Shown piece after piece: positions 53,527 through 54,072 of a stretch of DNA of 64,000 bases; the stretch's first letter is position 1; each line of letters starts with the position of its first letter. The DNA lies in the NCBI RefSeq assembly GCF_055900595.2, contig NZ_CM148325.1; one strand, given 5' to 3'. Made by a program: the position numbers and the translations under genes. The notes beneath the pieces were generated by a model, which was not told the DNA's origin, ran no database searches, and saw only the letters and a list, made by a program, of their open reading frames with translations.

Positions 53527-53929
53527 AAGAAAACATCCCCTGAGAGTTTAATTTTCGTCAAGATGCGTGGCGGACAATCCCCTGCCAGCGAAACGTTATC
53601 TTCCTGCTCCAGGTTTGCGACAATGTGGGGCGTCGCAAAAAAGCAAACGTTTAACTCCGCGCATACAAAACGGGTGGTAAAAAAAAAGCAAACGATTATC
53701 CGGCGATCATAGCGGCTTTTTCAACCTAAGTTTGCTGCTTTTTTCCCTTTTCTTGTATTGACGATGAAAAACCAGGCAATTGATGCGCAAACGTTACCGT
53801 CGATGCGCAAAATTACGGCATTTGTAGGTAGCTTGTAGCGAAGAGTTGCAGTAAAAAATCGTGCAAGATGGCAAAAATATTGCGTCTAAAAAGCGTCTTT
53901 TTGCACTGGCGAAGATACGGAGGCGGCAT

Positions 53930-54070
53930 ACAATTAAAGTATCAACACCAACCGGAACCTCCACCACGTGCTCGAATGAGGTGTGTTGACGTCGGGGGAA
54001 ACCCTCCTGTGAACCAGCGGGATAGAGTGAAAGACAAAGACCGGAAACAAACTAAAGCGCCCTTGTGGCG
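53930..54070 (+). ncRNA. ryjA: Possible small RNA RyjA, convergent with soxR and ending at a shared hairpin terminator
   Basis: Hairpin ctaaagcgcc-cttgt-ggcgctttag followed by tttt at 54041-54072 on the plus strand; position matches my recollection of RyjA next to the soxR 3' end; boundaries approximate. Confidence 0.3.
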
Positions 54071-54072
54071 CT

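Follow-up and report, generated by a model that had tools for sequence, protein, structure and literature searches.

The plus-strand segment 53941-54080 of the window, the window being the whole stretch of 64,000 nucleotides of contig NZ_CM148325.1 (assembly GCF_055900595.2) that was analysed, is with near certainty the gene for RyjA (SraL), a trans-acting small RNA (sRNA) conserved in Enterobacteriaceae, which carries an RpoS-type promoter and a terminator shared with the convergent gene soxR. RyjA/SraL was found in 2001, is listed by Rfam and by the curated K-12 annotation, and has its regulators and targets published; ryjA/sraL together with the shared terminator is an already known sRNA locus. 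In the DNA at hand, the analysis showed the identity, boundaries, fold and synteny of RyjA, the motifs of its promoter and terminator, and that the region does not code for protein.

The gene is flanked by two genes on the minus strand, ghxP for a guanine/hypoxanthine permease (52177-53526, 449 aa; Pfam Xan_ur_permease, E 6.6e-91) and soxR (54073-54537, 154 aa; Pfam MerR and MerR-DNA-bind), both annotated under these names in NZ_CP098223.1 and MG1655. The 546-bp gap between them at 53527-54072 is exact, as it follows from the ORF ends 53526 and 54073. The sequence-only reading had assigned RyjA to this gap, of which the RNA takes up the last 132 bp; it runs 8 bp further, and the other ~414 bp of the gap consist of ghxP regulatory DNA (promoter and leader) and spacer. 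The proposal that the ghxP-soxR region encodes RyjA is itself borne out by the Rfam match, orthology with MG1655, synteny, covariation and published Northern blots.

An Rfam scan of the whole window matched family RF01408 (sraL, 'Hfq binding RNA') over model positions 1-142 of 142 without truncation, scoring 157 bits where the gathering score is 39, with an E-value of 1.2e-35, and defined a gene of 140 nt with +1 at the A of position 53941. A permissive rescan of 53400-54650 (E<=1) returned no family besides sraL, the additional sraL match on the other strand being the terminator palindrome. Elsewhere in the window, five further Rfam matches exceeded the gathering score, at 7299-7464 (-), 13151-13227 (+), 35997-36067 (-), 46615-46686 (-) and 33474-33528 (+), comprising the sRNA STnc630 (182 bits), three naRNA4/CssrE REP-type elements and a SECIS_2 selenocysteine insertion element.

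The curated MG1655 record places the ncRNA ryjA (b4459) at 4277926-4278066, convergent with soxR with an 8-nt overlap and with ghxP on the opposite side, the same arrangement as in the window. Its annotated 5' end aligns to base 53941 (A), in agreement with the Northern blot detection of an E. coli RyjA that begins with A (PMC12956327). The two RNAs differ by two substitutions and one single-base indel, so that 137 of 140 positions are identical: the window has A instead of T at nt 72 and T instead of A at nt 88, and its A-run at nt 105-107 is shorter by one A, which makes the RNA 140 nt long compared with 141 nt in K-12. The terminator stem is identical and the -10, TAA and -35-like elements are the same, whereas divergence is far greater in the spacer upstream of -15. 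Northern blots of SraL/RyjA have been reported from both E. coli and Salmonella (PMC3753932, PMC12956327, PMC5389530). In the near-identical genome NZ_CP098223.1 (L001), the corresponding locus at 3001-3573 bears no ryjA ncRNA feature; automatic RefSeq annotation omits this ncRNA, present only in the curated K-12 record, and most E. coli records therefore show an apparently empty locus.

The ryjA promoter, at 53886-53940 on the plus strand, was delineated by blocks that are conserved across genera in an alignment anchored at +1. It features the -10 hexamer TACAAT at 53929-53934 followed by TAA at 53935-53937, a -35-like CTGGCG at 53906-53911 separated from the -10 by a 17-bp spacer, and an A/T-rich CTAAAAAG at 53886-53893 (-55 to -48). 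The -10, the TAA, the CTGGCR and the A/T-rich block are all kept across genera, with the -10 reading CTAGACTTAA or CTTACACTTAC in other genera. A sigma-70 consensus scan did not call this promoter because its -35 is weak. As judged from the motifs, it fits the published RpoS-type sraL promoter, with its -10, extended TAA and degenerate -35, and would thereby share the RpoS dependence of the Salmonella promoter, which was demonstrated by rpoS deletion, a lacZ fusion and >100-fold ChIP enrichment (PMC3753932).

At the other end of the gene, a bidirectional intrinsic terminator hairpin common to ryjA (+) and soxR (-) spans 54049-54079, as defined by the inverted repeat, by folding and by the terminator helix of the RF01408 model, with which it coincides. 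Its 13-nt arms, 54049-54061 and 54067-54079, are 100% complementary and enclose a 5-nt loop at 54062-54066, with one more T at 54080. The hairpin is predicted at -21.8 kcal/mol on the plus strand (z -4.71) and -24.8 kcal/mol on the minus strand (z -4.88), and none of 200 dinucleotide shuffles was equally stable on either strand. That soxR and a plus-strand RNA share one terminator had been read correctly from the letters; the hairpin had been placed at 54041-54072, about 8 nt off its true span, with the right arm cut off at the soxR boundary. For the same hairpin, the description of T-runs on both sides needs rewording, since on the plus strand the left flank is A-rich (GGAAACAAAC) and constitutes a T-run on the minus strand only, while the right T-run TTTAGTTTT lies mostly within the stem. 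The minus strand reads the same arrangement of A-tract, stem and T-tract reversed (TTTAGTTTGTTTCC), and the succession of A-rich run, stem and T-run on both strands is how a bidirectional intrinsic terminator is built. A crude terminator consensus scan did not call the hairpin at 54049-54079 because the T tract is mostly part of the stem.

The terminator lies inside the intergenic gap only in part, for it extends 7-8 nt into soxR, and the stem holds the soxR stop codon TAA (54073-54075) together with the last codon and a third, resulting in a ryjA-soxR overlap of 8 nt. Like other bidirectional terminators between convergent genes, it combines a GC-rich stem core with mutually pairing A- and T-tracts and presents a hairpin and U-tract on both strands; different from the usual ones, it serves on one side an sRNA that keeps the hairpin in the mature RNA and on the other a coding sequence with its stop codon in the stem. 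Terminator hairpins are the usual 3' binding module of sRNAs for ProQ and Hfq.

Homologues were retrieved by scanning a single genome of each species for a pattern built on two obligatory exact motifs. In total, 55 ryjA loci were collected from about 20 enterobacterial genera, among them Escherichia, Salmonella, Citrobacter, Enterobacter, Klebsiella, Raoultella, Leclercia and Lelliottia, as well as Cedecea, Trabulsiella, Atlantibacter, Pluralibacter, Pseudocitrobacter, Silvania and Huaxiibacter. The two motifs, ACCGGAACCTCC and GGGGGAAACCC, are fixed by the retrieval pattern, and their columns are invariant for that reason. A convergent soxR follows ryjA in 54 of the 55 loci, and ghxP was located upstream by tblastn in 44; for the remaining 11 no ghxP was returned by tblastn, and in most of these little sequence was available on that side. 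The single locus without a convergent soxR is that of Citrobacter sedlakii (L021, ryjA at 1587-1742 on the minus strand), where ryjA converges with a LysR-type regulator gene and the 1.7 kb downstream yielded no soxR, showing that RyjA persists without a soxR neighbour in this species.

Two of the loci come from records labelled 'Bacillota bacterium' (a MAG, L029) and 'Chryseobacterium sp. 18061' (L037) and are typical enterobacterial ghxP-ryjA-soxR loci, the GhxP and SoxR of the former being 100% identical to the window proteins; contamination or mislabelling is the most likely origin of both. An extra ORF occurs between ghxP and ryjA in Klebsiella, Enterobacter, Pseudocitrobacter and Silvania (L043, L005, L010 and L016), encoding ~222 aa in three loci and 167 aa in L005 (MLTVHHLNQSRS...). 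On visual inspection its product resembles a glutathione S-transferase. The ORF is missing in Escherichia, whose spacer is only ~414 bp.

The position of the soxR stop codon relative to the stem varies among the 54 soxR loci. It is inside the stem (at -7) in 10 loci, including all five labelled as Escherichia and three of C. amalonaticus, and between -1 and +2 nt relative to the stem end in 23 more, so that -7 to +2 accounts for 33 of 54; in the other 21 it is 8-512 nt away. Terminator sharing is therefore common but not obligatory. SoxR itself has a longer C-terminus (...EDEQN) in Escherichia and C. amalonaticus, the last codons and the stop being encoded by the RyjA stem (54073-54081 in the window), while in most other genera it ends ...LLEDD/EED just outside the stem (loci L003-L057). 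In the Salmonella representative, the stop comes 32 nt past the stem and the protein terminates in ...LLEDD, compared with a stop inside the stem and ...LLEDEQN in the window; Salmonella SraL is alike in family, fold, the tig-pairing segment CACGUGCUC and the terminator (PMC3753932, PMC8136791).

The window and 44 distinct homologues (45 sequences) were aligned for the analysis of the fold. The consensus comprises six helices with 34 pairs, agrees with the Rfam structure, and is paired in 99.3% of cells. The 5' domain (nt 2-49, 53942-53989) consists of helix 1 (nt 2-7/44-49), which encloses the conserved CAACCGGAACCUCC, and helix 2, in which CCUC at nt 18-21 pairs with GAGG at nt 38-41. The central domain (53991-54035) is built from helix 3 (nt 51-53/93-95), helix 4 (nt 54-56/62-64) and helix 5 (nt 65-70/77-82). 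It is followed by the terminator hairpin, whose stem sequence is nearly invariant in the 45 sequences, even where no coding sequence overlaps it. Between them, nt 84-117 (54024-54057) form an A/G-rich single-stranded linker, to which an (ARN)x motif, a reported Hfq distal-face motif, has been assigned (PMC5575007), and within which GAUAGAG.GAAAGACAAAGACCGG is invariant or nearly so across the alignment. An (ARN)x linker separating two stem-loops is likewise present in the OxyS-like Hfq sRNAs MicM, MgrR, OhsC and OxyS (PMC5575007); these share no sequence homology with one another, and RyjA/SraL differs in being also a dominant ProQ ligand in stationary-phase Salmonella (PMC8136791).

Compensatory double changes were found in eight RyjA pairs, compared with a shuffle mean of 3.1 and none of 500 shuffles reaching eight, and registers slid by 1-3 columns gave only 0-2 compensatory pairs. 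Most of this covariation sits in helix 1 (4 of 6 pairs) and helix 5 (3 of 6 pairs). These changes bear on the possibility that the hairpin is a terminator of soxR only and that the conserved DNA upstream of it is a protein-binding sequence for ghxP or soxR, with no RNA gene at all. The geometry is compatible with that idea, as the soxR stop in or beside the stem allows the hairpin to terminate soxR and the ghxP half of the gap bears conserved motifs resembling protein-binding sites, but compensatory change in helices 1 and 5 is a signature of RNA structure, the covariance model is matched over its full length, a conserved promoter stands exactly upstream of the conserved block, C. sedlakii retains ryjA without adjacent soxR, and the RNA has been found by Northern blots (PMC3753932, PMC12956327). 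We consider an absence of any RNA gene here extremely improbable.

Just as little weight can be given to a protein product of the region. A 163-aa ORF at 53868-54359 (+) and a 42-aa ORF at 53861-53989 (+) are both mechanically present, and the former runs antisense into soxR, as had been noted from the letters, but it is spurious, being an antisense frame of soxR with no Pfam match, broken in MG1655 into two frames by the 1-nt indel in RyjA. The alignment of homologues is rich in indels of 1-8 nt, among them lengths that are not multiples of three, substitutions track base pairs instead of codons, and direct reading revealed no SD-like motif ahead of the start codon of either ORF. The earlier judgement that no credible ORF precedes the hairpin accordingly stands, given the lack of Pfam matches and the indels that break the frame across homologues. 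Coding readings of the 163-aa ORF and of a 49-aa ORF were rejected on the absence of a Pfam match and on the split frame in MG1655.

The DNA between ghxP and the ryjA promoter was resolved into a regulatory region and a spacer. A candidate ghxP promoter at 53695-53724 (-) is composed of TTGAAA, an 18-nt spacer and GATAAT, with 10 of 12 consensus matches, and Escherichia, Citrobacter and Trabulsiella all keep both of its hexamers. Putative PurR sites were located by ranking all 16-mers of the window by their mismatches to the palindromic consensus ACGCAAACGTTTGCGT, which superseded a search for the perfect PurR palindrome with <=3 mismatches that had returned one site only in the region. PurR-box-like sites were thereby assigned to 53785-53800 (3 mismatches), 53641-53656 (4 mismatches), 53686-53701 (6 mismatches, overlapping the predicted ghxP -10) and, more weakly, 53587-53602 (6 mismatches). 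Across all 64 kb of the window, <=4 mismatches to the consensus are reached by just seven 16-mers, two of which lie upstream of ghxP; the sites at 53785-53800, 53641-53656 and 53686-53701 are invariant across genera. A PurR motif upstream of ghxP and the membership of ghxP in the PurR-1 iModulon have been published (PMC6892915, PMC8376909), and the putative sites are consistent with the published suggestion that PurR may repress ghxP. A 34-nt imperfect direct repeat with 74% identity and 45-bp spacing occupies 53620-53698, and both copies terminate in the PurR-like half-site GCAAACG, pointing to duplication of an operator module in the ghxP leader.

The interval 53816-53885, which separates the ghxP regulatory DNA from the ryjA promoter, is an unconstrained spacer of low identity, with indels in Citrobacter species. 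Against ~99% of complete E. coli genomes, a 156-nt query covering 53790-53945 reaches no more than 75-77% identity, compared with 97-100% for the flanks. The divergent patch 53816-53926 was considered as an inserted or functional element and rejected, since the cross-genus alignment revealed an unconstrained spacer with indels; the -35-like and A/T-rich blocks of the ryjA promoter stay conserved inside the patch. The lineage of the window is rare and divergent among genomes labelled as E. coli: over 52177-54100, 8-10 of 5426 complete genomes are >=99% identical, and the window ghxP is ~96% identical to that of the remaining ones. The closest species-representative locus is that of E. coli SCPM-O-B-8794 (L011). 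The lineage may be a cryptic Escherichia clade.

For the strain of the window, the expression, sigma-factor dependence, chaperone binding and targets of RyjA are expected to follow what is published for E. coli and Salmonella. SraL is RpoS-dependent in stationary phase and represses tig, as demonstrated with compensatory mutants (PMC3753932); Salmonella was the organism in which its targets were studied. It also pairs with the rho leader, where it blocks premature Rho-dependent termination with the involvement of ProQ and/or Hfq (PMC6582626, PMC7237705), and both trans targets have been validated by compensatory mutation (PMC3753932, PMC6582626). Binding by Hfq and ProQ was demonstrated in Salmonella (PMC8136791, PMC7237705), in which SraL accounts for at least ~50% of ProQ's ligands in stationary phase (PMC8136791). 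E. coli RyjA is polyadenylated, and its full-length form builds up in a pcnB mutant (PMC5389530).

Pairing with the two leaders was predicted using those of MG1655. Full-length duplexes of RyjA with the tig and rho leaders gave meaningless whole-molecule pairing and were replaced by windowed local duplexes with shuffles. The top windowed duplex joins RyjA nt 24-35 (CCACGUGCUCGA, 53964-53975) to positions -30 to -18 of tig through 7 + 3 bp (GUGCUCG:CGAGCAC and 3 bp), just upstream of the SD, in line with the published interaction, whose 7 and 3 bp are likewise placed a few nt ahead of the SD (PMC3753932). In this prediction, for which the MG1655 leader stood as proxy, the energy of the duplex, -16 to -20 kcal/mol, is no better than that of shuffled RyjA. 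Target prediction, which had been proposed as a check, thus recovered the published geometry for tig but no energy above shuffled RyjA; the duplex is consistent with the published interaction and is not independent proof of it. For the rho leader, RyjA nt 39-59 were predicted as the site.

In the 45-sequence alignment, the segment that pairs with tig is variable in genera other than Escherichia, Salmonella and Citrobacter. The terminator stem, the 5' CAACCGGAACCUCC and the central GAUAGAG.GAAAGACAAAGACCGG remain near-invariant even at loci without soxR overlap and with a diverged tig-pairing segment, a pattern of conservation which suggests that these segments may serve a further conserved partner or target.

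It is also conceivable that RyjA acts mainly in cis on soxR, with the overlapping 3' ends or antisense read-through coupling RpoS to SoxR levels by transcriptional interference or an RNA duplex. The 8-nt overlap and shared stem in Escherichia, the soxR stop inside the stem or at most 2 nt from it at 33 of 54 loci, and the short plus-strand U-tract past the full stem (TTTTG), with which some read-through is conceivable, all speak for such coupling. Yet the RNA is equally conserved at the 21 of 54 loci where the soxR stop lies 8-512 nt off and next to the LysR-type neighbour in C. sedlakii, the most conserved parts of RyjA fall outside the soxR overlap in the alignment, tig and rho have been validated in trans by compensatory mutation (PMC3753932, PMC6582626), and the RyjA/SraL literature cited here reports no effect on soxR. 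A predominantly cis-acting RyjA is therefore very unlikely, and the case for any cis effect is weakened because the RNA is just as conserved at loci uncoupled from soxR. A cis role on soxR in Escherichia, held in addition to the trans targets, is also unlikely; if true, with the stop and the last codons of soxR embedded in the RyjA stem, convergent transcription or RyjA read-through could modulate the termination, 3'-end stability or translation termination of soxR, and would join RpoS-driven stationary-phase signalling to the superoxide sensor.

As a trans-acting sRNA, RyjA would be transcribed from the RpoS-type promoter with its -10 TACAAT, TAA and weak -35 CTGGCG, and its transcript would end at the 13-bp hairpin at 54049-54079. 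The same hairpin would terminate the convergent soxR, because an A-tract precedes and a T-tract follows the stem. Judged by its E. coli and Salmonella homologues, RyjA would accumulate in stationary phase, bound by ProQ and Hfq, and would base-pair with mRNA leaders, repressing tig, which encodes trigger factor, and shielding the rho leader from premature Rho-dependent termination. In practical terms, a known sRNA locus was recognisable from raw sequence, and the true boundaries of the RNA, the hairpin and the overlap with soxR are now fixed.
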